Of a stretch of 64,000 nucleotides of DNA, positions 241 through 26,441 are shown one piece after another. The notes below the pieces were generated by a model. It ran no database searches and was not told the origin of the DNA. It saw only the letters and a list, made by a program, of their open reading frames with translations. Origin of the DNA: Botryllus schlosseri (taxonomy: Eukaryota); assembly GCA_051294905.1 (NCBI GenBank), contig CM119372.1, forward strand, positions 20,338,001-20,402,000, written 5' to 3'. Made by a program: the position numbers and the translations under genes. Position 1 is the first letter of the stretch. The number at the start of each line of letters is the position of its first letter.

Positions 241-478
241 CCGGCGACATTTCGAAACGACCATCGCCACAAGAGATCGGGGTTTCAGTTTGTCATATCG
301 GTAACATTTTGAAACGGTATCGCGCAAAGTTATTGACGTCGATTCAGTTGGTCATATCGGTGATATTTTGAAACGGCGTCACCACAAGGCTATTGACGTC
401 GCTCTCAGTTAGCTGTATCGGTAGCATTTTGAAATTTTCATCACCACAAGACTATTGACATCGATTCAGTTGGTCATG
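241..478. repeat. Tandem repeat, ~60-bp unit, about 4 diverged copies, directly upstream of the orphan ORF
   Basis: Recurring GTCATATCGGT(A/G)A(C/T)ATTTTGAAAC...TATTGACGTCGATTCAGTTG-like units starting at ~292, 351, 412 and 473. Confidence 0.8.
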
Positions 479-757: not shown

Positions 758-1574
758 ACGCTCTATTGATATATAGTTCACTTTCACCATCGTGCGAATA
801 ACCCATGTTACGGTTCCATGTTTGTGTGTCTGTATGTCATGCTTCAGATTGACTCAGAGTCATTGCAATGTGGCTTATTGGTATTGTTATCGGGTGACAT
901 TCGATCTACATCAAAGCTACCGGCTATGATAATGTCTGTGGATCTATGTTTGTATACCAACACATTGCATGCAATGTCACACACCTCCATTTACGCGTAT
1001 ACTGGTGTGGGCAAACAAGCGCGACGTATGTCTGGATGGTATTTTTTCGTGGAAACACAGGGTGTAACATGTTTACTTTGAATATTGTTCATTGGTTTAA
1101 CGATTCACAGTTGATATCCGGATCCGGTTACGTACTTTATCAATTCCGATTTCAAACTGAATGTCGAGACATACATTGACCAATAAAGACACAATATAGT
1201 AAACATGCGGGAGGAAAACTCGACCAGGAATTGTTATCGCGATGGGTGACATAAATCCAACCGTTTTCCGAACACCGTTATCCACATACCAACCGTCGTC
1301 AAGGAGGTGTTTTATTCAGACATTTTGACTCTGGAAAATCCAAAGCACGAACCCGGACATCACAGAACTATCGAAGCCTATTGTCCAATTTTCCAAAACA
1401 TGTATTTCGGTGTACAAGAGCATATTGTATGTGGTTAACCGATGATATTGATGTGATACGACCGATGGAGTATACTCTGAAACCGGTAGTCTGTGTATAT
1501 TTCCGTCACTGTTCGTTGTAATCTATTTCAAACTATCGTCAATACAACAAATACCAAATTGTCAGGTGTGTTTG

Positions 1575-2320
1575 TCAGATTTCAAAATGAAAATGGTTTT
1601 GTTACTCTAGGAAAAGCTAGATGACCAAGAGAAAATGTATTGTTACACTGGGTAAACGTCAGATCCCCAAAGGAAAATGATATTTTTACTCAGGTAAACG
1701 ACGCACCACCAAGTGAAAATGGCTTGTTGCTCAGGAAAAAGGTTTGTTACCCGGGGAAAAAGGTTTGTTGCCCAGAGAAAAAATGTATTTCCAAGTGAAA
1801 ATGGTTTGTTGCTCAGTTAAATGATAGTTTCCAGACGAAGGGGGTTTGTTACCCCAGGAGAAAATGATTAGTTACTCTAGGTAAAAGTATTTTTCCAAGT
1901 GAAAATGTATTGTTACACTGGGTAAACGCCGGATCTCCAAAGGAAAATGATATTTTTACTCGGGTAAACGACGGACCCACAAGTGAAAATGGTTTGTTGC
2001 TCAGGGAAAAAGGTTTGTTACCTGGGGAAAAAATATATTTCCAAGTGAAAAAGGTTTGTTGCCCAGAGAAAAAATATATTTCCAAGTGAAAAAGGTTTGT
2101 TAACCAGAGAAAAAATATATTTCCAAGTGAGAAAGGTTTGTTACCCAGAGAAAAAATATATTTCCAAGTGAAAAAAGGTTTGTTAGCCGAGGAAAAAAAA
2201 ATATTTACAAGTGAAAATGGTTTCTTACTCTGGGTAAACGTCAGATCTCCAAAGGAAAATAATATGTTTAGTCAGGTAAACGATGGACTGGCAAGTGAAA
2301 GTGGTAATTTTACATAGGTA
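1575..2320. repeat. Minisatellite, ~42-bp unit built of ~21-bp halves (CCAAGTGAAAAAGGTTTGTTACCCAGAGAAAAAATATATTT), inside copy A
   Basis: Directly visible periodicity; homologous shorter arrays in both arms of copy B. Confidence 0.9.
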
Positions 2321-5300: not shown

Positions 5301-6689
5301 GATGTTAAAATGTTGAGATGTCATAGTGATAATATTTCTGAAACTCTCTTTGTCAAACGTAAAGACAGGTCGCGAATAGAGTTGTAATGTTTCATTACTT
5401 GTTTCGAATCAATGTGCGTATAATCTCTAAATATGACTGGGTTGAAAGTTGTTAGTCATGTTTGTCAATCTATTTCAATTCAGACTATGTCAAAGTCCAA
5501 ATATTTCATTTTGGATTATCTGGATTTAACTTTAGAACACCGCGCGAATGGATTCCGACGCCGCGCTATACCATTTTTGATGATAAGGACTCGAGGATTT
5601 TCATGATAGAGTTGACAAGTGATAAGATGCGTGTTTTTGTTAAGAGGTTGATTTCAAGTTAATAAAGACAATAACTGTATAATGCGCATACTTGTGATTC
5701 CTGATTCTTGTAGAATTATAGTTGGTATTGATTCTATAGATGTGAAAACGGTGCGAAGTGTCAAAACATATAGCGATCGCGTGCAAGTGACAAATTGTTG
5801 GTTTTCGAATCACGGTCTGTGCTGGTACTGGTATTCATTACTTATTACTTGATAGCAACAACCATCGACATATTACACTGTAGCGACTGGGATGTATGTA
5901 ATGGCAAGACGCGAGAAATGGCTATGTCTTTGGTGTTATCTTGTGAGCGATCGGGGGATTTGTAACCTATTTCACACCTTTTTGAAGTGTTGGTTTGTGA
6001 ACGCGGCTATTGTTGATATTCGAATCACCGTCTACGCCGGCTCTGGGACAAACTAATTACCAAAACATTACCATATGCCAGATTTAGCAAACTATCCCAC
6101 ACCTTTTCGAACTGTTAGTTTGTGAGCGGGGTTATTGCTGATATTCGAATCACCGTCTACGCCGGCTCTGTGGTAAACTAATTACCGAAATATTACGTTG
6201 TCAACGATCGGCATGTATGTAACAGCGAGTCGCGAGCGATGGTTATGTCTTAGGTATTATCTTGTGAGCGGTCGCGGGATTTTACCAATATTTCACACCT
6301 TTTTGAATAAGCGTTCACTTCACAAAGGATTAGGGTTAGAGCGGAAATAAGTGGCAATTTGTCGCTATTCAAGTTACCGACACTGGCGGTCTGTTATTCG
6401 TTACATATTAAATCTTACGACTGAAATCAAGCTCTGTCCCAAACTGCTTACGAAAATTTCACCGCGTGAGTGATCGATATGCCTGTAACATCAAGTCGCG
6501 TATGTCTGAGACATTATCTTGTCAGCGATCGCAGGGTTTGCAAACTATTTCACACCTATTTGGAGTGTTAATATGTGAACGCGGCTATTGTTGGTATTGG
6601 AATCGCCGTCTACGCCGGCTCCGTGGTAAACTAATTACCAAGCGACTGATTCCTAGATTTAGCAAACTATTTCACACCCTTTTTGGTGA

Positions 6690-7140
6690 AAGTACGACAT
6701 ACCGCTAGCATTCTATCAACGAAAGTACGAATCATCGCCGCACCCATAAGAATAACGATATATCGAAGTCGCATTCACCGCAAACGTTGGGATTAACTCG
6801 AATCGGTCATATTTAATAATTTGTAATATACACATTAACTAAGAATCAATCACGTGACTATTTACTATTCCTGATACCTATTCAACGCCGTGCGAGATAT
6901 GCCTGAAAGTGCGAATCACGACCACGAGTTCTCATTACGATTCACCGCCGCAGCCTATACCTGAAAGTACGAGTCACGACCCCGAGTTTTCAATACGAGT
7001 CACCGCCGCAGCCTATACCCGAAAGTACGAATCACGACCGCACCCATAAGAACCCATTACGAGTCACCACCACAAGGGGGGTCTGAAAGTACGAGTCACC
7101 ACCCCCGGTTTTCAATACGAGTCACCACCCCGCCATAAGA
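6690..7140. repeat. Subterminal direct repeats (GAAAGTACGA(A/G)TCAC... motif) of copy A
   Basis: GAAAGT(A/G)CGA recurs at ~6689, 6721, 6905, 6963, 7021, 7085, just inside the ACTACT end. Confidence 0.75.
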
Positions 7141-7436
7141 ACCCCTGCCACCTCACGACCGATCTACATAACTACTATTGTTACATCACAAATATTTTGA
7201 CCGCAAACGAAACGATCACAGTTGACGATGTCGTACCAGTAGCAGATTAATCTAATAGCAATGTGTCTAAGTTTCTTAGACGACTCAATACTTACGTTGC
7301 GCATTGCTCAGTTTTGCCAACCCTCTTGTATGATTTAAATCGAACAAATATAGTCTGTGCGTTTATATTCTTACGGATGTGTAGATGGGTAGTGTAGTCC
7401 AGTGCTCTTCAACCGGGGTTTTCGTACACCCTAGGG

Positions 7437-8396: not shown

Positions 8397-8999
8397 CCCT
8401 AGGGTGTACCAGAATTTTCAAAGGGTGTACCACTCGGATGGGGTGTACAGGGGTGTACCAGATCCGAAATACGATGGCTAGCTATCACACAGGCAGGTTT
8501 ATGCGTCAGTAGGCCTACAGGTTGACGCACTGGTTAATGAGCAATATGGTAGTGCTCTTCAACCGGGTGTTTCGTACACCCCACGGTGTACCCTTATTTG
8601 TAAAGCGTGTACCACTCGGATCGGGTCTACAGGGGTGTACCAGATCCACATTATGATGAACCGATGATACGATGACTATAGCTATCACATTAAATACGCC
8701 AGTTTATGCTTCAAAACAGATTGACTGGATGCGTAATATAGTACAATGTGATGTCATAAGCAAATGTTTCTAATCATTTAACTTTTGGTAATGGACTTAA
8801 TACTGCCTTTTCGAGTAGAGTAGGGTAGAGTTAAGCATGTGTTCAGCTTGCGATATCTGTCTGATGATTCTCGAGGAAACCACCGCTACAGCACGGACAT
8901 TTTGAATTGGTGCTTCCTGCGGCCAGCTTATGAATAGCGCAGGATACATGAGTAGTTAGTATGATCGCTCGTGACGGGCCATTGGTTCTTATGGATGCA

Positions 9000-9310
9000 C
9001 CCGACCGGTGCCGCGAAACTCGTCCTGAACCGGTGACCCTTTCAGACCCCCCTTCCACCCGACCGGTGCCTGGGTTGGTATAGGCATCTCTCGACCGGTA
9101 ACCCTTTTCGGTATAGGGATCACTCGACCGGTGCCTCGAAACTCGTCTTGAACCGGTAACCCTTTTCGGTATAGGGATCACTCAACCGGTGCCTCGAAAC
9201 TCGTCTTGAACCGGTGACCATTTTCGGTATAGGGATCACTCAACCGGTGCTAGCATAGCCATCTCTCGACCGGTAACACTATTCGGTATAGGGATCACTC
9301 AACCGGTGCC
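9000..9310. repeat. Subterminal ACCGGT-containing tandem repeats (~59-bp unit), mirrored at ~25728-26040
   Basis: Repeated ACCGGT(G/A)...CGGTATAGGGATCACTC(A/G)ACCGGTGC. Confidence 0.85.
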
Positions 9311-12300
9311 GTGGTGGTAATTCGTACTTTCGGGTATAGTCAACTCTCGCGCTGTGTTGAAGAAGTATCAGGAATAGTAAATAGTCACGTGATTGATTCT
9401 TAGTTAATGTGTATATTACAAATTATTAAATATGACCGATTCGAGTTAATCCCAACGTTTACGGTGAGTACGACAATGATATATCGTTATTTTTATGGCG
9501 GGGGTGGCATGCGGCTATTGTGTCTTATGGGTGCGGCCGTGAATCGCCCTTTCGGGTATAGGTATCTCTCGCCCGGTGTTGAATATGTATCAAGTAAATA
9601 GTCATGTGATTGGTCCTTAGTTAATGTGTATATTCCAAATTACGGCGAGTACGACAATGATATATCGTTATTCTTATGGACGCGGCGATGATTCGTACTT
9701 TCGGGTATAGACTGCAGGCGGAATGTCGTACTTTCAACAAAAAAGGCGTGAAAATAGTTTGCTAAATCTAGGAATCAGTCGCATGGTAATGTTTGGGTAA
9801 TTAGATTACCACAGTACCGGCGTAGACGGCGATACGAATATCAACAATAACCGCGTTCACAAACTAACACTTCAAATAGGTGTGAAATATATAACGAACC
9901 CCGCAATCGCCCACAAGATAATGTCTCGGACATAACCATCTTTAGTGAGTTAGTGTTACAGGGATATCGATCACTCACGCGGTGAAATTTTCGTAAGCAG
10001 TTTGGCACAGAGCTTGATTTCACTCGTAAGATTTAATAAGTAACGAATAACAGACCGCCAGTGTCGGTAACTTGAATAGCGACAAATTGTCACTTATTTC
10101 CGCTCTAACCCTAATCCTTTGTGAAGTGAACGCTTATTCAAAAGGGTGTGATATCATTTTCAAATCCAACGACCACTCACCGGATAATGCTTCAGACAAT
10201 CCCTCATACCCGCTCACAAGGTAATATTTCGGTAATTAGTTTGTCACAGAACCGGCGTAGACGGTGATCGAAAACCAACAATTTGACGCTTTCTGGTGGT
10301 CGCTATATGTTTTGACACTTCGAACAGTGGCTGAATTTAGTTGCACGCTAAGAATTATGAGAATATTCAATCAATGTGTCAATTTGTCAACTTGAAATGA
10401 AACTTACTACACAACTCAAGTTGATTCGTGTCTGAATGTGTTAATTCGGTACAATTCTGATTATTTTGAGAAATCTTTTGATTCGACCGTAACCCGAATA
10501 TTACTGACGCCGACTTTCAGCCGCATCGAATTATTCGCACATTCCGCGCCGCTGTTTTCACACTTATAGAATCAATACCAACTATAACTCTACAAGAATC
10601 AAGAATCACAAGTATGTGCATTATACAGTTATTGTCTTTATCAACACGAAATCAAACTCGTAACAAAAACACGCAACTAATCATTTGTCAGCTCTAACAT
10701 TATCAAAAAATTCCAGTATTGTTGATTGAAAATCCTCGAGTCCTTGTTATCAAAAAGGTTGTAGTACGGTGTCGGAATCCATTCGCGGGGTGTACAAAAG
10801 CTAAATCCAGATAATCCAAAATGAAATATTTGGACTTTACCATAGTGTGAATTGAAATAGGATTGACAAACATGACTACCAACTTTGATCCAGCCACATT
10901 TCAAGATTATACTTTGAAACAAGTAATGTAACATTACAACTCTATTCACGATCCTGCTTTCCGTTTGTCAAAGAGATATTTTAACATCTTACCATACTCA
11001 AAAGAATTATTCACAACATTAACAATTGTTAAAAATCTAGTTTTCACTTACTTGATTATATCACTGCAACTCATAAATTTGAATTAATTCATCCTGGTTG
11101 TATTCGTATGCTCGGTCTTTTTTATTCAATTGTAAAGGTTGTTACTATTCTGCAGACAAAGTATTTACTAATCGGTGCATATACGATTTGACTTGGACAT
11201 ATTATATTTTGAGTATACGAGATTTGAATGTCTGAACAATAACTGAGAATTAATTTATCACAATTAAATCCGTATATTACAGCGTAAAAGATATTGGGAT
11301 GTCAGCAACTCTTTACGGTCGTAGTTACAACCACATTAACTAATCTACCCAGGCAACTCGTCATGATCATTCCTGAAATCAACACTAACACGACCACTGA
11401 CTTGAGTTAACCGCGAAACAGCATCAAGTTTTAAACCCGCTTACAGCTGACGGATTATTCGAATGCATCGATGGAGAATATTATTGAACTCGTCGGTATT
11501 GTCACTTCAACAAATTACACCGACTGCGAAAGTTAATATCGAATGGTAAGACTTGATCACATATTTGTTGATCACAGACATGACAAAAAAACATTACCGA
11601 GATTTTATAAACTAGTCATATTACTCTACACATCTATCAATATCAAAATGTGAGTCATCCAATTTTTCTACTAAAGTAACATTTCACTTTCGGATTCGGA
11701 TTCGGTATAGTCATACAAATTGTATTAAATCCAACATCAAAACAAAAGGAATTTTTCAGTTTATTGAAATCAAATCATTCGTCTTCGACTTGTGCTTTTT
11801 TTAGATTACCCGCGACAATTCGTTTCGAGTGAGTTGTAACCAAAGTCAAGGTATCTTTGTGTCCACAGATATGGAAGATGAATATAGCTAACACAATCAC
11901 GAATCGACGTTTCAGAGTATTTCACGGGTGTAATAAACTTGTTAGTGTCGCCTATCTCAAAGTACGCACGCGTTCGATTTCCATACCGACTGTTTCGATG
12001 TTTAGGATTCACTTACAATAACCACGGGTGAGGATTTAACATCGATGTCGTTACTGTCGGAATTTGTGACAGAGAATTGAAACATATGCACTTTACAGAG
12101 TATGAAAATATCACTTTGAGTATCGAGTACCGTTCGAAGCTAGCGATCAATTCTTAATCATTTCAGTAACTCCCCATTGTGCGTACTAAATGTAAAATAT
12201 CGCGAGGTTATACACTCTAAGACTTTGATTATTGTAAAAGTAAATTGTGATATGTTTGTTAGATGCATCCAATTCAACTAGAAGTGTCTAGTGCCCAACA

Positions 12301-12516
12301 CTCGTAATATCAAAAAAGTACTTGCTACACTGTTATTCACTAAACGTGTTTTGCATTGTTGTTCATTTCTAGTATTGATTGAAATTGATTTTGAACCCTC
12401 AAATAATAATTCCCGACATGAAACTAAGCCGCCGAAAGTCGTCACCATCACAAAGAAACAATTAGCACGATGATTACTAAATGTGTCCTATAGTTAGGTG
12501 TACTGGAATTATTTGT

Positions 12517-12547
<31 letters not shown>

Positions 12548-14204
12548 GATCAGAGAAATTGGAAATTTTTCCGTTGTCATTCGCTAAAGTAAATGTCATC
12601 ACAATACTCTGTCACTAAAAGACGTTACTTGGACGTGCTTGAATTCTAGACGTAGTTCTGATTTACCCAACACAAGACCCAAGGACAACCCTAGTTTCAG
12701 CCGAACACAGATATCCAAAATATCACACACTTCGCTATTCCTAAAGCACAAACACACGATACAAAATAATACTTGTTGTGTTGTTGCGGCATCATCACTC
12801 AACAATATCACCCTCAATACAAATGATGTTTATATGTAACATGCTATTGATTTGAACCACACCCACCTGACGGAAGAGGATTTACTCAATCTTTACAAAA
12901 TGGATATTGACCAACATCACATCACCGGATTGTATCTGTTTCGTTGGATACGAGTTATGTTAGTTTAACAGTAAACAAATTTCACCCTCTTGGATTATGA
13001 ACTCAATGCGTTAGCAGTCATTCAATATTTTGTTTGTGTCAACTAGTTACTTGGTATGTTACTCCACAACTCTTACAAAAGTACGAAGGATATTAACATC
13101 GCACTAAGTAATTAACTTTACTCGATATTCTCGCATTACGAAACTAGAGAATGGTTGGTTAGACTCTACAAACTGTTTCGATATCACAAGACCTTTATGG
13201 TCTGAATGGGTGTCCATGTGTCTTAAGAACCAAATAGTTCAACACAGCACTAGCACCAACAGAAACATCAGAGTTGTTTACACAAAAGTTTGTATGTGTG
13301 CAGTATGCGAATACCATGTGTAAGTCCAGCACAATTGTGGTATCCATCCGGGTTTAGTTAACACAATTTACGACACCGAGGTCACCTCATCTTTCGTAAG
13401 ACAACAAACCAACCAAGGTTTCAGGATATGTCCATGTCATAGCAATAAATCAGCTACTCCAACAACAGAATACATATGTTTTCTAGTTACGGTGCTTACA
13501 TCTTACACACAAATCAATCTACTTTGCTAACAAAAAGTGCTGGGTCATCAAGTGATTGACCTAACAACAAAACAGCTAAACGTACTATCATACAAAATGG
13601 TCGTTATAGTTTGCACACCAACGGTACATCGTACAAGTAACAAGTCTCGAGAATCCAGTTATTCAAAAACGTGAAAGTATTTCTACACCAAGTCGTTATG
13701 TTGACGAAAGCGTTTATTGTAATATCATGATCGATTTGCATTCGTCGGTCGCAAAATGTCACTACTCTAAATAATTATTTTTCACTCAAACACAAACGCA
13801 TACTTGTCACCATTCGTTTTCATCAAGCACGAGTTCAAGAAACTTACTTACTACGACATGAATTTTTATTTTTATGTTGTGTAAATAGTTAATAATTAAT
13901 TCAAGTAACACTATATCAACATCATCGAGTTGTGCTAATAGATTTACATGTGGTCTCGTGGTTTTCGTCGGGACATACAACACGAACTAACTGTAGACTC
14001 CTCTCTGTTGTACAGCTACTCGGTAATCGAAATGCATTAACATGTAAACAACGATCTTGTTTCGTCACACCAAAAATATGTTCACTGTCGCGATACTCCG
14101 CACAAGACATGCATAGCCTTTTCACACTCGTAATAGTATACCAACGTCAAGCGATAACGTTTAACAAGACCAACGACACTGAACCCGCGACGTTTAACTA
14201 TGTA

Positions 14205-14665
14205 AAATTACCATTTTCACCTGGAGGCCTGCCGTTTCCTGTAGTAACAAACCTTTTTCACTTGGAAATATATTTTTTCTCTGGTTAACAAACCTTTTTC
14301 ACTTGGAAATATATTTTTTCTCTGGGCAACAAACCTTTTTCACTTGGAAATATATTGTTTCTCTGGTTAACAAACCTTTTTCACTTGGAAATATATTTTT
14401 TTTCATTAACAACAAACCATTTTCACTTGGTGGTCCGTCGTTTACCCGAGTAAAAATATCATTTTCCTTTGGAGATCCGGCGTTTACCCAGTGTAACAAT
14501 ACATTTTCACTTGGAAAAATACTTTTACCTAGAGTAACTAGTCATTTTCTCCTGGGTAACAAACCCCTTTCGTCTGGAAAACTATCATTTGCCTGAGTAC
14601 CAATACCGTTTTCACATGGAAATCTATCTTTCACCAGGGTAACAATATCATTTTCGTTTTGAAAA
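14205..14665. repeat. ~42-bp minisatellite in the left arm (mirror copy ~20380-20840)
   Basis: Repeated AACAAACCTTTTTCACTTGGAAATATATTTTTTCTCTGG. Confidence 0.85.
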
Positions 14666-15244
14666 CTGACAACCACACCGGACAATTTGATATTTTTGTA
14701 TATTGTTACAACGGACAGTGACAAAATACACACCAACAACGACGCCGATACATTTGTCTAATCAAATATTCACTTGCTCTGATGCACCCCATCAAAATCA
14801 TTGGTTACTCACATACAATAACAATGTGCTGTTGTACATCGACATGTATGTTTTCGGAATTGGCGAATAAAGGGGTTTCCGATATGTCCGTGATGTCCGG
14901 GTTCGTGCTTTGGATTTTCCAGAGTCAAAATGTCTGAATAAAACACCTCCTCGACTTTGGTAACTGGTTGATAAATGGATAGTGGTGTTCGCACAACGGG
15001 TGAAGTTATGTTCCCCATCGCGCTAACAACTCCGGGTACTTGTGAGTTTCCTCAGGTCTGTTTACTATATTGGGTCTTTACTGATCAATACATATTGCTC
15101 CAGTCAGCTGAAACCGGATCACTAATATGTGTGTGGGGGCCTGATCCGGATATTCACTCATGAACCAAAGACCAATATTCAAGTAAACATGTTACAGACC
15201 GTGTTTTGTCTCCATGAAAAATACCAATGCATACACCATCACAT

Positions 15245-18200
15245 TATAGATAACTAAGGTAAACCGTAGATGCGACACTCGCGAGCATCACGTAACGTCA
15301 CGCTCCAATTATACTCTACGGCACTGTTGTTGTTTTGCTTGGCGCTTATGCAGCAGGAGGCAGATTTCAGGATTAGGATGGTAATATCTATCCATGGGGT
15401 ATGTTTAGCGAGTAGCTGCTCCGTATGGTTACTAACCGAGCTTATTGGATCCATGCTACACAATCTGTGCTAGGAAAACGAGCAATCGAATACAATTTTA
15501 AAGTCAATAAATACGGCTGCCCGAAGCGGATTTCCAGTATCTCAAGATTGAAGTTCCTTGGTGTAAGGTGTCGCATTGAAAGTGATGACTCGGACGTCTA
15601 ATAATCTATCCGCATTTCAGCTGACGCAGTCTCGATCCCTTCAAATTCTGTAGATACCGGTCTGTTGCTTAACATGGAATCACGCCGTATCTAATAACAA
15701 TAGGAATTTTTATTACTTGACAGACGATTATTTGTTTGAATCTAATTGCAACTGTTGCGACTTGGCCTAGGCAGGCAGATTTGATTGAGACTACTCACTG
15801 CTGATCTTATTCAAGATCTGCTGAATAATGTACAATGATATGGAGGACAGGAGAGTGACGACAAGGAAGCAAGTGGCAACTGGTGATAACTGATAAGAGT
15901 CTGGAACCTAGTGCATTGCTCAGAATAGCCACAATACTACTGCCTACCATCTATCTTCATTCAATAAGTCTGTAATGGAATCAGGCTGTCCCAATGCGGC
16001 AAGCAGAAGATTGATGGAAGTCGATGTGAATTTCAGTCGAAGCAGGTGATAACGCAGAAGCATTTCACGCATGGGACTATTTCTATGAAAGTTTATCAAG
16101 GATCAAATTTATCAAACGTTTTGCTCGGCACAATGAAGCTAATGAGTCCAGTCAAAGAAGAAGAAACTTTAAGGAGGAAAATTTTGTGCGTTGTGAGCAA
16201 AAGTCTTCACTACATTGCATGGGCACTTTCAACAACACATGTGGCCCTCTCGGAGGAGAACACCGCGGTTTGGAAATTGTAAAATCTGCATTGCAATTTC
16301 CAACCACGTGGCTCCTTCATTTCATTTATGAAGAGGAAGGCTTGGCCAAATATTCATATTTTGGAGGCAAACAAACCCGATACTGAAGTAGAAATGATGT
16401 TAATTTCATCTCAAACGCAAGTAAAAGTAGCGATTTCCAATAAGGCTGAGTTTAGAAGTAGTCAAATATCATAACCATGCTAGTAAGTCTTACAAGTAGG
16501 TTACTTGAGTACTTTGAAAAAGTAGAAGTATTTCGTCACTATCCACCTGTTGGAATCTGCCAAAATATATCTGACTGTGACATAACCAACAGTCCATGTG
16601 TTTCTGTTTTATGTGCCATATTTCGTGATTTATTTTCTATATCATCATGAAGGAAGCAATAAAATGCGATTTTACCAAATTTGTCTCACCTGGGAGAGCC
16701 TAACAAGGATTACAGAACCGAATCAATGGTCATAAGTCACAGAGTAAGGGAGTGTCTATATTTCCATCAAACCGAAATACATAACAAATAAGGCAGCATC
16801 AATAACGACATGGAAGATATAGCCTACACATGCGCAATACTAGGATAGGAATGAGTGATGTGACCTTATCATTCAACTTGTCGGATCACACCCACATCAA
16901 ACATGTTGTACACTGTCTCATCTGATTGTATAACTAGTCATAAACATATATGATTAGAATAATGTAAGGGTTAAGTAGGTTAACAGTAATGATATGACGA
17001 CAAGATGAAGATTTTCTACATCCATCATACGACTGTTCACGGATATATGTTGTGACAGTGAATTACAAATGAGAGACCCCGAGTGGACAATAGATTTCGA
17101 GCCAGGTTACTATTAGATGCAGATAACTATAGATTTGCCCGTTGACAACGATCTTGTAGTATGAGAGTGAAAATATTTGTGTGTAACTATTATCTTGTAG
17201 AATTCAATGCTTAATGAGGGTAGGTGACAATCTGGTACGTAGAGGTGCTCCTACATCTGAAAGCAGACGGGCTGCGAATCCCGCCGGTTGAACTGCATGT
17301 TTTGAAAATACTGGGTGTCAAAAATATGGCAAATAGAAGCCGCCTTACGGTAACAAATCATCCAGTTAAATTATGACAAATGTGAAAAATCATTTCACTG
17401 ACAGCTTAAACGATGAAATTGACATTGCGCTGATTTTATGGAGTTTTGTGCTTCTGAGATAAATTCCAGCGGTGATTTGGATATCTGACTGTGGAGTTAC
17501 GCTAGTCACTCCATCATGCAGGCATTCATTGAGTCTCTTTGGCAAAGCTGTGCAATAATAGAGGGATCATCAATGATGTTACGTAGGTCTTATGTCACAC
17601 AAATTTCACAACCTTTACTTTCATCCTCTTCGACTGGACTCAGCATCGTCATTTAGTTTCATTTTGTCGAGAAGAAACTTGGTCCTTGATAAATTTTTAT
17701 AGAAATAGTCCCATGCATGAAATGCTTGGTGGGATCACCAGCTTTGACTAAAATTCGTACCAAAATCCATCAATTTTTTGCTTGTCATATTCGGATAGCG
17801 TGATTCCATTACTGACTTCTTGAATGAAGATAGCTGGTAGGTGGTATGATAGTGACCCTTGTATAAATTTCATATCCAGCAACCACTTGCTTCTTTGCCA
17901 TCATTGTCCTCTATGTCATTGGACATTATACAGCAGATAACATGGTCAGTGAGCAGTGACTTTCAATCAAATCCACCTTCATCGGCCAAGTCACAACGGT
18001 TACAAGTAGATTCAAAGAATTTATCCTCTGTCAAGTATAACAATAATTCCTATTACTACAAGGCGCGATTCCATGCTAAGCGGCATGACGGTATCTACAG
18101 AATTTTAAGGGGCCGAGCCCGCGTCAACTGAAATGCGGTTTCTTATTCTGATTGATATTATACCAACACGTCATTAGTAGTATAATTACTTTCAATACGA

Positions 18201-18521
18201 CACCTCGGAACTTCTATCTATAGAGAAACAAGAAACACGCTTCGGGCAGCCGTATTTAATGGCTTCAAAGTTGTATTCGATTGCTCGTTTTCCTAGCACA
18301 GATTGTGTAGCATGGATCCAACAACCTTGGTTAGTAACCATACGGAGCAGCTACTCGCTAAACATACCCCATGGATAGATATTGCCATCCTAATGCTGAA
18401 ACCTGCCTCTTGCTGCATAAGCGCCAAGCAAAACAACAACAGTGCCGTAGAGTATAATTGGAGCGTGACGTTACGTAATGCTCGCGAGTGTCGCATCTAC
18501 GGTTTACCTTAGTTATCTATA
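15245..18521. mobile_element. Foldback DNA element with long TIRs and 7-bp TSD (possibly P/Galileo-like), no recognisable transposase
   Basis: Termini TATAGATAACTAAGGTAAACC / GGTTTACCTTAGTTATCTATA; TSD ATCACAT (15238-15244, 18522-18528). The empty site is present in the right arm at ~19795-19810. Outer ~280 bp near-identical; diverged inverted similarity continues ~0.9 kb inward. Superfamily assignment is an inference from TSD length. Confidence 0.85.
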
Positions 18522-18726
18522 ATCACATACAAGTAACGTCACGATTGTTCACAAGTATTCGCGTAAACGAGGTGTACATACAATGTGTCGGTGTACAAAC
18601 ATCATGGAAAACAAATTCATGTTCTCAAGTATCATCATGCGACGACTCTGTACATTCAATGTGGGCATAGATGACACACGACATGATACAATGGACAGTG
18701 CATTATGTATACCGATATATTCTCAG

Positions 18727-19002
18727 TCAAATATGCGAACCGTGTACTATCACGCATCCCGATTTTCGCTGAATATCCACAACACCAACAAATCTGTACA
18801 TTTCTTTTCCCTCGACCTCGACGATAGAGTTGTCATCCCAATGTACCAATCGAGTGTATGGTTCATCAGGTGTAAAATCCAAATCAAATGTCACCAAGGT
18901 ATCGTTTTTCATTTTCAATATTTCCACCGCTGCATCTTGTCTGTGTCGTAAAACAACGGTGTGGGGCCAGAGGAATCTATGGACAGTTACGCGTAGTCCC
19001 AT
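18727..19002 (-). CDS. 91-aa orphan protein in the unique core of copy B (unknown function)
   Basis: Intact ATG-TGA ORF, homologous without gaps to ORF 476-757 (shared VLRHRQ, FTPDEP, KEMYR, IVHGSHI motifs). Confidence 0.65.
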   Translation of the reverse strand: MGLRVTVHRFLWPHTVVLRHRQDAAVEILKMKNDTLVTFDLDFTPDEPYTRLVHWDDNSIVEVEGKEMYRFVGVVDIQRKSGCVIVHGSHI

Positions 19003-19651
19003 ATTTACTCGTGGATATACTCAGGTAACGACAACGCTTTCTCAGCGGTCTGCGTGGGTGAACCGTTTCAATACGTAGCTGGATCAACTAGACCAAAAGT
19101 TTCCAACCGTGATTTATGTTGACCTGTCGAGTTACGAGATAGCACCCTCTTGCGGTGTGATTAACACGAAATAAGCCTTCAACTCACAGAGACACACCTT
19201 GGAGTACATTATCTAATCGTAATCGAACTCGAGATTCACACACACACAGAGTCCCTGTTTACGATTTCAATCCGGAGTCACTGCTCACGATGTTTATCTG
19301 TAGTCGTTATGTGGGAGTAGCGACATCCGACATATTCATCGCGTGAAAGATTGATAACGACGGTGATCGCCAAATACATAAAATTAGGTGAAACACTGCG
19401 GTCTCAGCAAAAAAGTTTGCAGGTTAGGACGACCAATACGTGGAGGGATTGAGCGAGTTACGCAACCCGATTATGTCGAAGTCTGGATCGCGATACAAGT
19501 CTACCTGAGAATCCGAACAATCTTGCAAAATCAAGGTGTGAACCCGTGAAAGAACTGTACTCGTGTGAGGTTCATTTTTCACAAGTTGGGTGGAGGTCGA
19601 TTCATACTAAGATCGTGTTACGTCCAATTATGGCAGCTTGTCTGTCCCCAA

Positions 19652-22600
19652 GTCATCTATGCCCACATTGAATGTACAGAGTCGTCGCATGATGATACTT
19701 GAGAACATGAATTTGTTTTCCATGATGTTTGTACACCGACACATTGTATGTACACCTCGTTTACGCGAATACTTGTGAACAATCGTGACGTTACTTGTAT
19801 GTGATGGTGTATGCATTGGTATTTTTCATGGAGACAAAACACGGTCTGTAACATGTTTACTTGAATATTGGTCTTTGGTTCATGAGTGAATATCCGGATC
19901 AGGCCCCCACACACATATTAGTGATCCGGTTTCAGCTGACTGGAGCAATATGTATTGATCAGTAAAGACCCAATATAGTAAACAGACCTGAGGAAACTCA
20001 CAAGTACCCGGAGTTGTTAGCGCGATGGGGAACATAACTTCACCCGTTGTGCGAACACCACTATCCATTTATCAACCAGTTACCAAAGTCGAGGAGGTGT
20101 TTTATTCAGACATTTTGACTCTGGAAAATCCAAAGCACGAACCCGGACATCACGGACATATCGGAAACCCCTTTATTCGCCAATTCCGAAAACATACATG
20201 TCGATGTACAACAGCACATTGTTATTGTATGTGAGTAACCAATGATTTTGATGGGGTGCATCAGAGCAAGTGAATATTTGATTAGACAAATGTATCGGCG
20301 TCGTTGTTGGTGTGTATTTTGTCACTGTCCGTTGTAACAATATACAAAAATATCAAATTGTCCGGTGTGGATGTCAGTTTTCAAAACGAAAATGATATTG
20401 TTACCCTGGTGAAAGATAGATTTCCATGTGAAAACGGTATTGGTACTCAGGCAAATGATAGTTTTCCAGACGAAAGGGGTTTGTTACCCAGGAGAAAATG
20501 ACTAGTTACTCTAGGTAAAAGTATTTTTCCAAGTGAAAATGTATTGTTACACTGGGTAAACGCCGGATCTCCAAAGGAAAATGATATTTTTACTCGGGTA
20601 AACGACGGACCACCAAGTGAAAATGGTTTGTTGTTAATGAAAAAAAATATATTTCCAAGTGAAAAAGGTTTGTTAACCAGAGAAAAAATATATTTCCAAG
20701 TGAAAAAGGTTTGTTGCCCAGAGAAAAAATATATTTCCAAGTGAAAAAGGTTTGTTAACCAGAGAAAAAATATATTTCCAAGTGAAAAAGGTTTGTTACT
20801 ACAGGAAACGGCAGGCCTCCAGGTGAAAATGGTAATTTTACATAGTTAAACGTCGCGGGTTCAGTGTCGTTGGTCTTGTTAAACGTTATCGCTTGACGTT
20901 GGTATACTATTACGAGTGTGAAAAGGCTATGCATGTCTTGTGCGGAGTATCGCGACAGTGAACATATTTTTGGTGTGACGAAACAAGATCGTTGTTTACA
21001 TGTTAATGCATTTCGATTACCGAGTAGCTGTACAACAGAGAGGAGTCTACAGTTAGTTCGTGTTGTATGACCCGACGAAAACCACGAGACCACATGTAAA
21101 TCTATTAGCACAACTCGATGATGTTGATATAGTGTTACTTGAATTAATTATTAACTATTTACACAACATAAAAATAAAAATTCATGTCGTAGTAAGTAAG
21201 TTTCTTGAACTCGTGCTTGATGAAAACGAATGGTGACAAGTATGCGTTTGTGTTTGAGTGAAAAATAATTATTTAGAGTAGTGACATTTTGCGACCGACG
21301 AATGCAAATCGATCATGATATTACAATAAACGCTTTCGTCAACATAACGACTTGGTGTAGAAATACTTTCACGTTTTTGAATAACTGGATTCTCGAGACT
21401 TGTTACTTGTACGATGTACCGTTGGTGTGCAAACTATAACGACCATTTTGTATGATAGTACGTTTAGCTGTTTTGTTGTTAGGTCAATCACTTGATGACC
21501 CAGCACTTTTTGTTAGCAAAGTAGATTGATTTGTGTGTAAGATGTAAGCACCGTAACTAGAAAACATATGTATTCTGTTGTTGGAGTAGCTGATTTATTG
21601 CTATGACATGGACATATCCTGAAACCTTGGTTGGTTTGTTGTCTTACGAAAGATGAGGTGACCTCGGTGTCGTAAATTGTGTTAACTAAACCCGGATGGA
21701 TACCACAATTGTGCTGGACTTACACATGGTATTCGCATACTGCACACATACAAACTTTTGTGTAAACAACTCTGATGTTTCTGTTGGTGCTAGTGCTGTG
21801 TTGAACTATTTGGTTCTTAAGACACATGGACAGTGTCCAATCAGACCATAAAGGTCTTGTGATATCGAAACAGTTTGTAGCGTCTAACCAACCATTCTCT
21901 AGTTTCGTAATGCGAGAATATCGAGTAAAGTTAATTACTTAGTGCGATGTTAATATCCTTCGTACTTTTGTAAGAGTTGTGGAGTAACATACCAAGTAAC
22001 TAGTTGACACAAACAAAATATTGAATGACTGCTAACGCATTGAGTTCATAATCCAAGAGGGTGAAATTTGTTTACTGTTAAACTAACATAACTCGTATCC
22101 AACGAAACAGATACAATCCGGTGATGTGATGTTGGTCAATATCCATTTTGTAAAGATTGAGTAAATCCTCTTCCGTCAGGTGGGTGTGGTTCAAATCAAT
22201 AGCATGTTACATATAAACATCATTTGTATTGAGGGTGATATTGTTGAGTGATGATGCCGCAACAACACAACAAGTATTATTTTGTATCGTGTGTTTGTGC
22301 TTTAGGAATAGCGAAGTGTGTGATATTTTGGATATCTGTGTTCGGCTGAAACTAGGGTTGTCCTTGGGTCTTGTGTTGGGTAAATCAGAACTACGTCTAG
22401 AATTCAAGCACGTCCAAGTAACGTCTTTTAGTGACAGAGTATTGTGATGACATTTACTTTAGCGAATGACAACGGAAAAATTTCCAATTTCTCTGATCGT
22501 GTGTGTGTGTGTGTGTGTTTTACAAATAATTCCAGTACACCTAACTATAGGACACATTTAGTAATCATCGTGCTAATTGTTTCTTTGTGATGGTGACGAC

Positions 22601-25600
22601 TTTCGGCGGCTTAGTTTCATGTCGGGAATTATTATTTGAGGGTTCAAAATCAATTTCAATCAATACTAGAAATGAACAACAATGCAAATCACGTTTAGTG
22701 AATAGCAGTGTAGCAAGTACTTTTTTGATATTACGAGTGTTGGGCACTAGACACTTCTAGTTGAATTGGATGCATCTAACAAACATATCACAATTTACTT
22801 TTACAATAATCAAAGTCTTAGAGTGTATAACCTCGCGATATTTTACATTTAGTACGCACAATGGGGAGTTACTGAAATGATTAAGAATTGATCGCTAGCT
22901 TCGAACGGTACTCGATACTCAAAGTGATATTTTCATACTCTGTAAAGTGCATATGTTTCAATTCTCTGTCACAAATTCCGACAGTAACGACATCGATGTT
23001 AAATCCTCACCCGTGGTTATTGTAAGTGAATCCTAAACATCGAAACAGTCGGTATGGAAATCGAACGCGTGCGTACTTTGAGATAGGCGACACTAACAAG
23101 TTTATTACACCCGTGAAATACTCTGAAACGTCGATTCGTGATTGTGTTAGCTATATTCATCTTCCATATCTGTGGACACAAAGATACCTTGACTTTGGTT
23201 ACAACTCACTCGAAACGAATTGTCGCGGGTAATCTAAAAAAAGCACAAGTCGAAGACGAATGATTTGATTTCAATAAACTGAAAAATTCCTTTTGTTTTG
23301 ATGTTGGATTTAATACAATTTGTATGACTATACCGAATCCGAATCCGAAAGTGAAATGTTACTTTAGTAGAAAAATTGGATGACTCACATTTTGATATTG
23401 ATAGATGTGTAGAGTAATATGACTAGTTTATAAAATCTCGGTAATGTTTTTTTGTCATGTCTGTGATCAACAAATATGTGATCAAGTCTTACCATTCGAT
23501 ATTAACTTTCGCAGTCGGTGTAATTTGTTGAAGTGACAATACCGACGAGTTCAATAATATTCTCCATCGATGCATTCGAATAATCCGTCAGCTGTAAGCG
23601 GGTTTAAAACTTGATGCTGTTTCGCGGTTAACTCAAGTCAGTGGTCGTGTTAGTGTTGATTTCAGGAATGATCATGACGAGTTGCCTGGGTAGATTAGTT
23701 AATGTGGTTGTAACTACGACCGTAAAGAGTTGCTGACATCCCAATATCTTTTACGCTGTAATATACGGATTTAATTGTGATAAATTAATTCTCAGTTATT
23801 GTTCAGACATTCAAATCTCGTATACTCAAAATATAATATGTCCAAGTCAAATCGTATATGCACCGATTAGTAAATACTTTGTCTGCAGAATAGTAACAAC
23901 CTTTACAATTGAATAAAAAAGACCGAGCATACGAATACAACCAGGATGAATTAATTCAAATTTATGAGTTGCAGTGATATAATCAAGTAAGTGAAAACTA
24001 GATTTTTAACAATTGTTAATGTTGTGAATAATTCTTTTGAGTATGGTAAGATGTTAAAATATCTCTTTGACAAACGGAAAGCAGGATCGTGAATAGAGTT
24101 GTAATGTTACATTACTTGTTTCAAAGTATAATCTTGAAATGTGGCTGGATCAAAGTTGGTAGTCATGTTTGTCAATCCTATTTCAATTCACACTATGGTA
24201 AAGTCCAAATATTTCATTTTGGATTATCTGGATTTAGCTTTAGTACACCCCGCGAATGGATTCCGACACCGTACTACAACCTTTTTGATAACAAGGACTC
24301 GAGGATTTTCAATCAACAATACTGGAATTTTTTGATAATGTTAGAGCTGACAAATGATTAGTTGCGTGTTTTTGTTAAGAGTTTGATTTCGTGTTGATAA
24401 AGACAATAACTGTATAATGCACATACTTGTGATTCTTGATTCTTGTAGAGTTATAGTTGGTATTGATTCTATAAGTGTGAAAACAGCGGCGCGGAATGTG
24501 CGAATAATTCGATGCGGCTGAAAGTCGGCGTCAGTAATATTCGGGTTACGGTCGAATCAAAAGATTTCTCAAAATAATCAGAATTGTACCGAATTAACAC
24601 ATTCAGACACGAATCAACTTGAGTTGTGTAGTAAGTTTCATTTCAAGTTGACAAATTGACACATTGATTGAATATTCTCATAATTCTTAGCGTGCAACTA
24701 AATTCAGCCACTGTTCGAAGTGTCAAAACATATAGCGACCACCAGAAAGCGTCAAATTGTTGGTTTTCGATCACCGTCTACGCCGGTTCTGTGACAAACT
24801 AATTACCGAAATATTACCTTGTGAGCGGGTATGAGGGATTGTCTGAAGCATTATCCGGTGAGTGGTCGTTGGATTTGAAAATGATATCACACCCTTTTGA
24901 ATAAGCGTTCACTTCACAAAGGATTAGGGTTAGAGCGGAAATAAGTGACAATTTGTCGCTATTCAAGTTACCGACACTGGCGGTCTGTTATTCGTTACTT
25001 ATTAAATCTTACGAGTGAAATCAAGCTCTGTGCCAAACTGCTTACGAAAATTTCACCGCGTGAGTGATCGATATCCCTGTAACACTAACTCACTAAAGAT
25101 GGTTATGTCCGAGACATTATCTTGTGGGCGATTGCGGGGTTCGTTATATATTTCACACCTATTTGAAGTGTTAGTTTGTGAACGCGGTTATTGTTGATAT
25201 TCGTATCGCCGTCTACGCCGGTACTGTGGTAATCTAATTACCCAAACATTACCATGCGACTGATTCCTAGATTTAGCAAACTATTTTCACGCCTTTTTTG
25301 TTGAAAGTACGACATTCCGCCTGCAGTCTATACCCGAAAGTACGAATCATCGCCGCGTCCATAAGAATAACGATATATCATTGTCGTACTCGCCGTAATT
25401 TGGAATATACACATTAACTAAGGACCAATCACATGACTATTTACTTGATACATATTCAACACCGGGCGAGAGATACCTATACCCGAAAGGGCGATTCACG
25501 GCCGCACCCATAAGACACAATAGCCGCATGCCACCCCCGCCATAAAAATAACGATATATCATTGTCGTACTCACCGTAAACGTTGGGATTAACTCGAATC

Positions 25601-26087
25601 GGTCATATTTAATAATTTGTAATATACACATTAACTAAGAATCAATCACGTGACTATTTACTATTCCTGATACTTCTTCAACACAGCGCGAGAGTTGACT
25701 ATACCCGAAAGTACGAATTACCACCACGGCACCGGTTGAGTGATCCCTATACCGAATAGTGTTACCGGTCGAGAGATGGCTATGCTAGCACCGGTTGAGT
25801 GATCCCTATACCGAAAATGGTCACCGGTTCAAGACGAGTTTCGAGGCACCGGTTGAGTGATCCCTATACCGAAAAGGGTTACCGGTTCAAGACGAGTTTC
25901 GAGGCACCGGTCGAGTGATCCCTATACCGAAAAGGGTTACCGGTCGAGAGATGCCTATACCAACCCAGGCACCGGTCGGGTGGAAGGGGGGTCTGAAAGG
26001 GTCACCGGTTCAGGACGAGTTTCGCGGCACCGGTCGGGTGCATCCATAAGAACCAATGGCCCGTCACGAGCGATCATACTAACTACT
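19652..26087 (+). repeat. Right inverted arm of copy B (6436 bp)
   Basis: Begins GTCATCTATGCCCAC (reverse complement of 18661-18675) and ends ACTAACTACT followed by the TSD. Confidence 0.95.
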
Positions 26088-26441
26088 TACATGCTTGGGC
26101 AGCCAGGGGGTCGAGTTTGCGAACCACTGCGTTAGATGGTGGTCCAGTAACCTCGATCCCTGATTCGTATTTAGCATTTCCTATACGTTGCAGCCTTGCT
26201 CAAGTGTTCATTCTTATCTCGGCTAGGCCAGGGGTGCTCAACCAGCGGACGTACGGCCTCATTCAGCCGCAATTTTGCGACCTTCTACACATATTTAAAT
26301 TAGCGTGTGTTGGCGGCCGTCATTATGCAACCAATTGTTGCTGGTTCGAGTCTCGGATCTGCCATGTTTCTATGTGTCGGAGGTTTATCTAGGCTCCTCG
26401 TCGCCGACCCCTGTTAACGTAGCGTCTTGAAAAGCCTAGAA

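Follow-up and report, generated by a model that had tools for sequence, protein, structure and literature searches.

Results

A palindromic element in the window

The window, a stretch of 64,000 nucleotides of Botryllus schlosseri DNA, contains a palindromic element that spans positions 8951-26087 and is flanked by the two copies of a 6-bp target-site duplication (TSD) at 8945-8950 and 26088-26093 (Table 1). At the left boundary, TACATG (8945-8950) is followed by AGTAGTTAGTATG... from 8951, and at the right boundary, ...CATACTAACTACT extends up to 26087 and is followed by TACATG (26088-26093). Thus, the AGTAGT...ACTACT termini and the perfect 6-bp TSD described in the earlier note were read directly at both boundaries.

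The inverted arms pair positions 8951-15244 plus 18522-18675 with 19652-26087 at 99.67% identity (6297 aligned columns), and the differences between the left and right arms are a few SNPs, an (AC)n length change, and one small indel. The transposon nested in the left arm terminates in inverted repeats of ~300 bp (94%) and is flanked by a separate 7-bp duplication, ATCACAT (15238-15244 and 18522-18528); the right arm of the element represents the empty site. With the nested transposon and one copy of its TSD removed, self-alignment reproduced the previously noted arms of 6441 and 6436 bp, the 976-bp core, and the self-complementarity of ~93%. The terminal ~200 bp is the sole strongly conserved segment of the arms, with a mean identity of 95% to nine other copies, and the terminal 300 bp exhibited 92-100% identity in the 40 scored full-length genomic matches.

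Table 1. Features of the palindromic element and its flanks (positions in the window)
Feature	Position	Strand	Remarks
Left TSD copy, TACATG	8945..8950	.	Same hexamer at 26088-26093
Left terminus	8951..9150	+	(AGT)2 end motif and terminal ~200 bp
Subterminal array	9004..9307	+	11 x palindromic hexamer ACCGGT inside 33/58-bp repeats
Left arm, outer part	8951..15244	+	6294 bp, non-coding; 41-bp tandem array at 14245-14430
Nested transposon	15245..18521	.	3277 bp, unrelated, non-autonomous; not part of the PAL family
Left arm, inner part	18522..18675	+	154 bp, beginning with the 7-bp target duplicated by the nested transposon
Unique core	18676..19651	.	976 bp
Conserved 91-aa ORF	18727..19002	-	Within the core; stop included in coordinates
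Right arm	19652..26087	-	6436 bp, mirrors the left arm without interruption; 41-bp tandem array at 20613-20798
Mirror ACCGGT subterminal array	25731..26034	-	By symmetry with the left array
Right terminus	25888..26087	-	Ends ...ACTACT
Right TSD copy, TACATG	26088..26093	.

Copies, target sites, and lengths of the PAL family

The terminal 21-mer of the element yielded 549 forward and 541 reverse matches in the 495-Mb genome, whereas the reversed control yielded 1 and 0, which excludes a chance terminal pattern. All 11 full copies (the window copy and 10 others, on nine contigs) were palindromic, with different flanks, a distinct 6-bp TSD for each copy, and arm-arm identities within copies of 98.8-99.96%. 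These results indicate that the architecture is multi-copy with different 6-bp TSDs, as the earlier note had anticipated, and not a one-off; we refer to this family of palindromic elements as PAL. The copies at C2:20634793 and C2:20718146 are 100% identical including their flanks, reflecting a segmental duplication.

The TSD was perfect over 6 bp at 41 of 43 PAL end pairs, matched at 5/6 positions at one, and was missing at one, in a sample biased towards young copies by the choice of 30 of the pairs via perfect matches to the terminal pattern. The target centre was CG in 23/42 cases, against a background of 4.3% (p = 6e-21), and YR in 36/42. PAL inserts as a single unit with (AGT)2/(ACT)2 ends and a 6-bp TSD, and its copies number in the hundreds; at an assumed 550 copies of 13.75 kb, the family would make up ~1.5% of the genome. 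In addition, sequencing runs from nine studies contain parts of the element sequence, none of them recorded as RNA. The contigs of three runs of uncertain kind, possibly RNA, cover the whole element, with no GT..AG joints listed, and no run contig crosses an arm-core junction with 31 bases on each of the two sides.

The median total length of PAL was 13,753 bp (n = 42). The arms measured 5955-6600 bp in 10 copies, and the core measured 895-986 bp in all but one of the 11 copies; the arm, core, and total lengths are conserved while 15-75% of the arm positions vary between copies. The proposal that the element is near Polinton genome length holds in this genome, where the PAL median of 13.75 kb compares with 13.3-17.1 kb for the Polinton-like elements (PLEs).

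Concerted evolution of the arms and age of the insertions

The comparison of six copy pairs revealed 3029 symmetric differences, which are common to both arms, 0 side-shared and 0 cross-shared differences, and singleton differences of 0.04-0.9%. In the arm tree, both arms of one copy were sisters in 7/7 cases. Within every copy, the arms undergo concerted evolution and carry the same lineage-specific changes. For the closest copy pair (C3a/C16a), the symmetric differences amounted to 0.63% and the singletons to 0.09-0.31%.

The divergence between copy lineages was 0.6-24%, and the TSDs exhibited 1 mismatch in 252 duplicated-site bp. These near-intact TSDs indicate that most of the divergence (3-24%) predates the last integration, and the insertions look young and the copy lineages deep. 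The nearest relatives of the window copy among the scored matches shared 95-97% identity with it across 2.1-2.9 kb of arm, in genome searches that score the best candidates only and in which a closer relative could in principle be missed.

Coding content of PAL

The longest stop-to-stop frame in one arm plus the core was 142 aa, and 30 frames taken from the right arm and the core gave only sub-threshold noise in a Pfam search, with no transposase-like ORF in the arms or core. For pPolB, PF03175 had no match in or near the element. When the ORFs of one PLE copy, including its integrase, were compared with the 11 PAL copies by tblastn, only the small core ORF was matched, and the rve integrase is absent from PAL; A32 ATPase, capsid, and protease genes were likewise not found by Pfam or by this tblastn search. 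None of the genomic matches to PF04665 (A32 ATPase) fell within the location of the window, and Rfam and tRNA scans of window positions 1-30000 gave no matches. Hence, the earlier note is upheld for pPolB, integrase, ATPase, and capsid, none of which is recognisable, but has to be amended for the core, which contains a conserved 91-aa ORF.

The 91-aa ORF exhibited dN/dS values of 0.2-0.4 between clades, at dS values of 0.8-1.3, and was stop-free in 145/150 scored genomic matches. Judged from these comparisons, the ORF is under purifying selection and is the only conserved predicted gene of PAL. Its product is homologous to that of a 92-aa PLE ORF (E 7e-34, 51-59% identity over 87 aa, full-length alignment), which sits near the ends of the PLEs and is the sole PLE ORF with a match in the 11 PAL copies. 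The PAL arms share neither DNA nor protein similarity with the PLE copy compared.

The predicted structure of the 91-aa protein is a compact beta-sandwich (pLDDT 87.5); an earlier model built from 10 sequences (pLDDT 40.6) was discarded. The best VIA-align match, 4zj9_A (Z 4.7, rmsd 3.7, 61 aligned), points weakly to alpha-crystallin/CS-type sandwiches. A Foldseek search of the model against PDB and BFVD gave no match at E <= 0.001 (best E 0.08), and PDB sequence searches and Pfam gave no match for the protein, including to alpha-crystallin/CS and catalytic families. PHROGs had no matches to the PLE ORFs or the PAL ORF, and a protein-atlas search with the PAL ORF returned scores of <=0.89 with low recognition and gave no lead. 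A profile search against 1.84 billion representatives retrieved one cluster of 3 unnamed proteins of 91-98 aa. The 91-aa protein is slightly acidic (11 K/R, 13 D/E), which does not favour DNA binding. A role as a dimer binding the ACCGGT array was considered and dropped, given this acidity and a predicted fold that carries no hint of DNA binding.

Gene-bearing PLEs in the same genome

At C1:8322176-8348964 lies a PLE with AGTAGT...ACTACT ends, the TSD CATGGA, and a 520-bp TIR, which encodes an rve+chromo integrase, an A32 ATPase, a BIR protein, and a Bcl-2 protein. Its double-jelly-roll match is weak, consisting of a 425-aa putative capsid with a sub-threshold Pfam E of 0.0095 and two database relatives. 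In five PLE copies (the C1 copy and four others of 15.3-17.1 kb), the TSD was perfect in four and matched at 5/6 positions in one, and the target centre was YG in 4/5 duplications. The rve-type integrase is encoded by PLEs of this genome in many copies, and the A32 ATPases of the gene-bearing families fall into three classes. The expectation that the genome holds gene-bearing elements with (AGT)2/(ACT)2 ends and 6-bp TSDs was therefore confirmed; beyond the terminal hexamer, the ends in the two families examined differ from those of PAL.

A polymerase gene was not found in the C1 copy, and PF03175 (pPolB) had no match genome-wide at E <= 0.001, the pPolB signals being weak, with a best E of 0.0019 that falls short of the Pfam cut-off, and lying in long ORFs at ~7 loci. 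In another PLE copy, 16 kb in length and organised differently from the C1 copy, a search of the right 7 kb for the replicase gave no long ORF.

For the PLE family with a 205-aa ATPase and a long-TIR family on C6, the ends had only AGTAGT in common with those of PAL. The subterminal repeat motifs also differ, being ATTGCCACATCATC in those families and ACCGGT in PAL, and a global alignment was no better than 134/500 shuffles. Among these two families, no gene-bearing element with the PAL subterminal sequence was found. The C6 locus (C6:3172942-3187711) represents a second family with identical long ends, 14.7 kb in length.

Discussion

Origin and propagation of PAL

We consider PAL to be an abundant, non-autonomous, helper-dependent palindromic derivative of the PLEs of this genome, in the form of a genome-length 'inverted dimer', with a probability of roughly 0.6. 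Its derivation from PLEs is suggested because the two have in common the end motif, the TSD length, the target preference, and the homologous 91-aa gene. Integration of PAL would be performed in trans by the rve-chromo integrase of the PLEs, and the identity of the arms would be established or maintained prior to integration, most likely during replication as linear extrachromosomal DNA, via snap-back or inverted-dimer formation or via repair of a self-annealed displaced strand. The total of ~13.7 kb would be kept close to the helper genome length, much as helper-dependent adenovirus genomes of half size are recovered in the form of inverted dimers, and the 91-aa protein may be the one function that the satellite must itself provide.

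A further-reaching reading, which we offer tentatively, is that PAL is a true virus satellite: an inverted-dimer (snap-back) replicon of genome length that multiplies outside the chromosomes via the machinery of a polintovirus-like helper, is packaged in the helper capsid under a head-size constraint, and re-enters the germ line via the helper integrase. The palindrome would then be renewed in each replication cycle, and the 91-aa protein would be the factor by which the satellite hijacks its helper. This reading would explain why insertions are born symmetric, why lineage divergence exceeds insertion age, and why the length is conserved while the sequence changes.

It is possible, though doubtful, that PAL is moved by the PLE integrase but is otherwise purely chromosomal, with the arms homogenised, as in large genomic palindromes, by intrachromosomal gene conversion between the inverted repeats in source copies, old copies lost through the instability of long palindromes, and the length conservation incidental, without extrachromosomal replication or packaging. 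Concerted evolution alone is silent on where homogenisation occurs, and in C3a/C16a the symmetric differences (0.63%) and singletons (0.09-0.31%) are of similar order, as conversion within chromosomes would allow. However, with only 1 TSD mismatch per 252 bp, conversion must act in source copies that are mostly unseen, and the closest relatives of the window copy among the scored matches are only 95-97% identical to it. Conversion alone does not predict conserved arm, core, and total lengths with 15-75% of the arm positions changed, and the C6 family likewise has identical long ends, at 14.7 kb.

Another view places PAL in a different superfamily of DNA transposons with long inverted repeats (Foldback/MULE-like, hAT6, IS3EU, or Dada) and ascribes its Polinton-like ends to chance. 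This view draws on the very long inverted repeats and subterminal tandem repeats of Foldback-type elements and on the 6-bp TSDs of hAT6, IS3EU, and Dada. It is highly improbable, since PAL has no transposase-like ORF or Pfam match in its arms or core, its sole gene is homologous to a PLE gene, integrase-bearing PLEs with the same end motif, TSD length, and YG/CG centre reside in the same genome, and (AGT)2/(ACT)2 matches the Maverick motif exactly (excerpt of PMC8097293).

Unconventional autonomy, in which PAL would be mobilised by the 91-aa protein or a host enzyme rather than by the PLE integrase, is hardly credible. Such autonomy could account for the 91-aa ORF as the sole conserved coding sequence, under purifying selection, and agrees with the failure to find a helper with a matching subterminal sequence in two families. 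However, a predicted 91-aa beta-sandwich lacking similarity to catalytic families is an unlikely recombinase, and the staggered 6-bp TSD and Maverick ends fit an rve-type integrase, as encoded by many PLE copies. An assembly artefact or one-off local inverted duplication is negligible as an explanation, for although long palindromes can arise in assembly and libraries and the short contigs of other runs bridge no arm-core junction with 31 bases to each side, one architecture recurs in 11 full copies with different flanks on nine contigs, 42/43 end pairs have their own TSD, the copies differ mutually by 0.6-24% yet are each internally symmetric, and runs from nine studies contain parts of the sequence.

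Significance of the PAL family

Polintons/Mavericks are regarded as viruses with a second mode of life as transposons. To our knowledge, observations of their replication and packaging are very few, and non-autonomous dependants have barely been described. As a helper-dependent derivative of PLEs, the PAL family would provide a natural record of this hidden life cycle. Its conserved parts hint at what is required: a cis-acting end (the 200 bp and the ACCGGT array), one small trans-acting protein, and a preferred genome length. A testable signature for snap-back or panhandle replication is provided by the perfect concert between the arms. Moreover, long palindromes are regarded as fragile, yet eukaryotic chromosomes can retain near-perfect ones of 13 kb with a spacer of only 1 kb. 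A read-through transcript of PAL would give a very long hairpin RNA, which could trigger RNA silencing.

Comparison with known systems

A literature search, with most subscription journals and Repbase reports outside its range, retrieved no account of Polinton derivatives that are palindromic or non-autonomous, save for Tlr1, which is 'sometimes' called a non-autonomous polinton. In vertebrate Mavericks, the commonest end signature is 5'-(AGT)2//(ACT)2-3' with 6-bp TSDs, and intact elements measure 12.7-24.6 kb (excerpt of PMC8097293). PAL resembles them in its (AGT)2...(ACT)2 ends, 6-bp TSD, TIRs, and a size within this range, and its genome holds gene-bearing relatives with an rve-chromo integrase and an A32 ATPase, to one of whose genes the PAL gene is homologous. 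In contrast to Polintons/Mavericks, PAL has no polymerase, integrase, ATPase, protease, or capsid genes, its copies number in the hundreds, and its inverted repeats are 6.4 kb each, ~93% of the element, compared with the 46-1447 bp reported. Two related families in the same genome differ from PAL in their subterminal sequence.

PAL resembles Foldback elements (Drosophila FB, Galileo) in its very long inverted repeats, subterminal tandem repeats, little or no coding sequence, and probable mobilisation in trans. Foldback-type elements have 7-9-bp duplications and other end motifs, and their repeats are largely tandem arrays, whereas PAL has a 6-bp TSD in 42/43 pairs, the Maverick end motif, and a Polinton-like gene. 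The snap-back genomes that occur in incomplete adenovirus particles offer a further parallel; adenovirus vectors and defective genomes differ in that they arise in culture and are not integrated.

Transpovirons are likewise reduced derivatives of Polinton-like viruses that have lost the morphogenetic module, keep inverted terminal repeats, and depend on a virus, but they are ~7 kb long, carry the gene for a polymerase fusion with an inactivated helicase, and travel inside the particles of giant viruses, whereas PAL is a chromosomal palindrome without these genes (excerpt of PMC5499653). Helper-dependent adenovirus genomes of 15 kb are packaged as direct and inverted dimers, and these vectors are similar to PAL in being protein-poor, in keeping only their ends, in forming an inverted dimer that nears the helper length, and probably in relying on a helper (excerpt of PMC4189039). 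Unlike such inverted dimers, PAL, known from its chromosomal copies, is a long-lived and diversified natural lineage that is integrated in the germ line and carries, in its unique 1-kb core, a gene of its own under selection.

Structure of the palindromic element

For the studied copy of the palindromic family (PAL; window 8951-26087), an inverted-repeat search and self-BLAST paired 8951-15244 plus 18522-18675 with 19652-26087, and the two arms were 99.67% identical over 6297 columns. The earlier note's figures (arms of 6441 and 6436 bp, a core of 976 bp, self-complementarity of about 93%) were all recovered. The transposon nested in the left arm has inverted ends of about 300 bp (94%) beginning TATAGATAAC and is flanked by a separate 7-bp duplication (ATCACAT); its empty site is preserved in the right arm, which is uninterrupted.

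Coordinates of PAL features and related elements (C, contigs of the same genome; PLE, gene-bearing Polinton-like element)
Feature	Position	Strand	Description
Left end, studied copy	8945-8951		duplication TACATG, then AGTAGTTAGTATG...
Nested transposon, left arm	15245-18521		3277 bp, non-autonomous, unrelated to PAL
Unique core	18676-19651		976 bp
Core ORF	18727-19002	-	conserved, 91-93 aa across copies
Right end, studied copy	26087-26093		...CATACTAACTACT, then duplication TACATG
Partial second PAL copy	1-7176		cut off by window start
PLE	C1:8322176-8348964		ends AGTAGT...ACTACT, duplication CATGGA, 520-bp TIR (97.9%)
Long-inverted-end family copy	C6:3172942-3187711		14.77 kb, AGTAGT ends
Weak pPolB (PF03175) loci	C5:11748519, C13:14452325, C11:12225737, C3:35162972, C4:12067515, C4:12088842, C3:9632060

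Each PAL arm opens with (AGT)2, followed by 11 ACCGGT hexamers inside the first 360 bp and, further inward, a 41-bp tandem array. Conservation relative to nine other copies is 95% in the outermost 200 bp of the arm and averages 26-85% per 200-bp window over the remainder, while arm length is held at 5955-6600 bp despite the sequence turnover. The longest frame in the arms is 142 aa, and neither an Rfam family nor a tRNA was found by scanning.

The partial second copy in the window carries an intact 93-aa ORF (476-757, + strand) and a right arm with 75-93% identity to the arm of the studied copy. It terminates ...CATAACTACT at 7176 with the flank ATTGTT, and a gap of 1.77 kb separates it from the studied copy. 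Elsewhere in the window, a tight cluster of inverted repeats at 49070-50733 (413 nt, 96%; 202 nt, 91%; 163 nt, 80%) resembles a small foldback-type element.

PAL is a genome-wide mobile-element family

In the 495.5-Mb eukaryotic assembly (219 contigs), the terminal 300 bp of PAL gave full-length matches of 92-100% identity on many contigs, mostly in +/- pairs spaced 13-18 kb apart (best 40 of 685 candidates scored). A degenerate 21-base pattern of the PAL end, with at most one mismatch, occurred 549 times in the forward and 541 times in the reverse orientation, against 1 and 0 for the reversed pattern used as control.

Eleven copies, the studied one and ten others, were followed through in full. 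All ten further copies were palindromic with the same build and a within-copy arm identity of 98.8-99.96%; the core measured 895-986 bp in nine, and C10a, 10.8 kb long, is a deletion form. Nine of the ten are flanked by a perfect 6-bp duplication of their own and one by a 5/6 duplication, so that the recurrence of the architecture at other sites, which the earlier note had proposed as a check, was observed throughout. Thirty additional end pairs were drawn from among the first 100 matches to the pattern; every one matched it perfectly, a choice biased to well-kept copies, and 29 showed a perfect 6-bp duplication. The remaining pair (C1:16430251/C1:16448261, ends 18.0 kb apart) has unrelated flanks, with hexamers differing at 5/6 positions, and could represent two separate elements or an inter-copy recombinant.

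For all end pairs together (n = 43), the duplication was perfect in 41, 5/6 in one and lacking in one. PAL is a mobile-element family, and a one-off rearrangement is rejected. Its target choice is non-random, the two central bases being CG in 23/42 (background 4.3%, p = 6e-21) and YR in 36/42.

The core encodes a conserved small protein

The earlier note had recognised none of the hallmark Polinton genes in the element. Pfam searches of 30 frames gave nothing above the cut-off. The core contains a conserved ORF, open in 10/10 copies having a normal core. The ORF falls into two clades, dS 0.8-1.3 apart with dN/dS of 0.2-0.4, and 145 of the 150 genomic matches scored were free of stops (1202 first-look candidates, PLE-type homologues included). 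Beyond this genome, one cluster of three unnamed proteins was retrieved when 1.84 billion representatives were searched with a profile.

The structure of the 91-aa protein, modelled with confidence from 23 homologues, has nine strands (pLDDT 87.5, pTM 0.80). Foldseek with this model found no match at E <= 0.001 in the PDB and BFVD, and the best VIA-align results, alpha-crystallin/CS-type sandwiches (Z 4.7, rmsd 3.7, 61 aligned), lie in the range of common arrangements. The protein contains 11 K/R and 13 D/E residues. Our guess, held with low confidence, is that it has a protein-protein role in handling the helper or the host.

A shared small gene links PAL to Polinton-like elements

In the parts of PMC8097293 dealing with vertebrate Mavericks, the commonest ends are 5'-(AGT)2//(ACT)2-3', with perfect 6-bp duplications, sizes of 12.7-24.6 kb and TIRs of 46-1447 bp. 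The A32 packaging ATPase profile (PF04665) gave 83 matches in this genome, in open frames whose lengths are 205, 207-228 or 274 aa; many occur in multiple copies. Among the intronless ORFs of the PLE on C1 are those for a BIR protein, for a Bcl-2-family protein, for the 205-aa ATPase, for an integrase that combines rve and chromodomain matches (E = 2e-14 and 2e-8), and for a 425-aa protein whose double-jelly-roll match is sub-threshold (E = 0.0095); a polymerase gene is absent. Gene-bearing Polinton-like elements with AGTAGT...ACTACT ends, 6-bp duplications, integrase and ATPase are present in the same genome, in favour of the earlier note's interpretation.

Four further copies of this PLE family, 15.3-17.1 kb long, have 6-bp duplications (three perfect, one 5/6). 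The BIR-domain and Bcl-2-family genes are accessory genes of an anti-apoptosis type. At C9:4253800-4260799, which spans the right-hand 7 kb of a family copy 16 kb long, the integrase-capsid block seen in the C1 copy is missing and a Bcl-2-gene segment lies in mirrored orientation, indicating that copies of one PLE "family" vary in internal organisation.

A 13,437-bp PAL copy (duplication TTCGCT) is nested in the C1 PLE. A 92-aa ORF of this PLE is homologous to the PAL ORF (E = 7e-34; 87 aa aligned at 51-59% identity), and the remaining PLE ORFs have no match in the 11 PAL copies. In at least 10 gene-bearing copies, 1.7-1.9 kb separate the small gene and the ATPase. This shared gene is the decisive link between PAL and PLEs. 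The PLE TIR has ATTGCCACATCATC-type repeats and no ACCGGT, and resembles the PAL ends in the hexamer only; when the first 60 bp were aligned globally, the result was no better than 134/500 shuffles.

In a tree of 23 small-gene homologues, the PAL-type and PLE-type clades are separate (support 100/100 each), the former comprising three types from this genome and the database protein. On this evidence, PAL is an old diversified lineage, and a recent deletion product is rejected.

The pPolB profile (PF03175) gave zero matches in the genome at E <= 0.001. At E <= 10, about seven loci with open frames of 774-1455 aa gave weak matches (best 0.0019, below the cut-off), and these loci may be the genome's few polymerase-bearing Polintons; one lies about 10 kb from a PAL core at C4:12056890.

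The PLE small-gene matches frequently form (-,+) pairs within the same contig at spacings of 1.3-43 kb, and in six pairs inspected by eye no ATPase (PF04665; all 73 candidates scored) lay between the members. The two ends of the C6 copy are 100% identical over at least 2.1 kb, each end containing the small gene, and four more such copies measure about 14.5-14.7 kb. These results indicate that very long, near-identical inverted ends are recurrent in gene-poor Polinton-like derivatives here, of which PAL is the extreme and most abundant case.

The arms co-evolve and the insertions are young

In four-way alignments of both arms of each of two copies (six PAL copy pairs), both arms of one copy differed from both of the other at 3029 sites (0.63-24.3% of columns), side-shared differences occurred at 0 sites, and singletons accounted for 0.04-0.9%. 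In a tree built from 630 bp of arm sequence, a copy's own two arms were sisters in 7/7 copies, six of the pairs being identical. Among the best 40 of 4083 candidates scored with a 3.5-kb arm query, the nearest relatives of the studied copy showed 95-97% identity; 15 relatives had both arms with near-equal scores and 8 a single arm.

The duplicated target sites, which are beyond the reach of arm-arm conversion, showed 1 mismatch in 252 compared bases, whereas post-insertion divergence of at least 3% would predict about 7 or more. Most PAL divergence is therefore older than the last integration, and each insertion was symmetric from birth. Thus, the PAL arms co-evolve, the insertions are young and the lineages are deep.

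Homogenisation by conversion in chromosomal source copies seems less likely to us. We favour an extrachromosomal phase, in which the displaced single strand of a palindromic molecule would have to self-anneal and thereby present mismatches between the arms for repair; snap-back synthesis would likewise generate perfect palindromes.

Two PAL copies 83 kb apart (C2:20634793-20650377 and C2:20718146-20733730) are 100% identical (2 x 3 kb each, both 300-bp flanks included), which points to a segmental duplication of very recent date or to duplication of this region in the assembly.

Comparison with known systems

PAL length has a median of 13,753 bp (interquartile range 13,385-14,162, n = 42, nested-insertion copies included), in one narrow band with the C6 family (14.7 kb) and the PLE copies (13.3-17.1 kb), despite the turnover of the PAL arm sequence. 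With its many copies, palindromic build and single gene, PAL is probably a dependant of Polinton-like elements; the Polinton-satellite interpretation of the earlier note is supported and extended. According to passages of PMC4189039, helper-dependent adenovirus genomes below about 27 kb rearrange and enlarge, and a 15-kb vector was packaged as direct and inverted dimers. With two arms of about 6.4 kb and a 1-kb loop, totalling the size of its putative helper, PAL looks, by analogy, like a natural counterpart of the inverted dimers.
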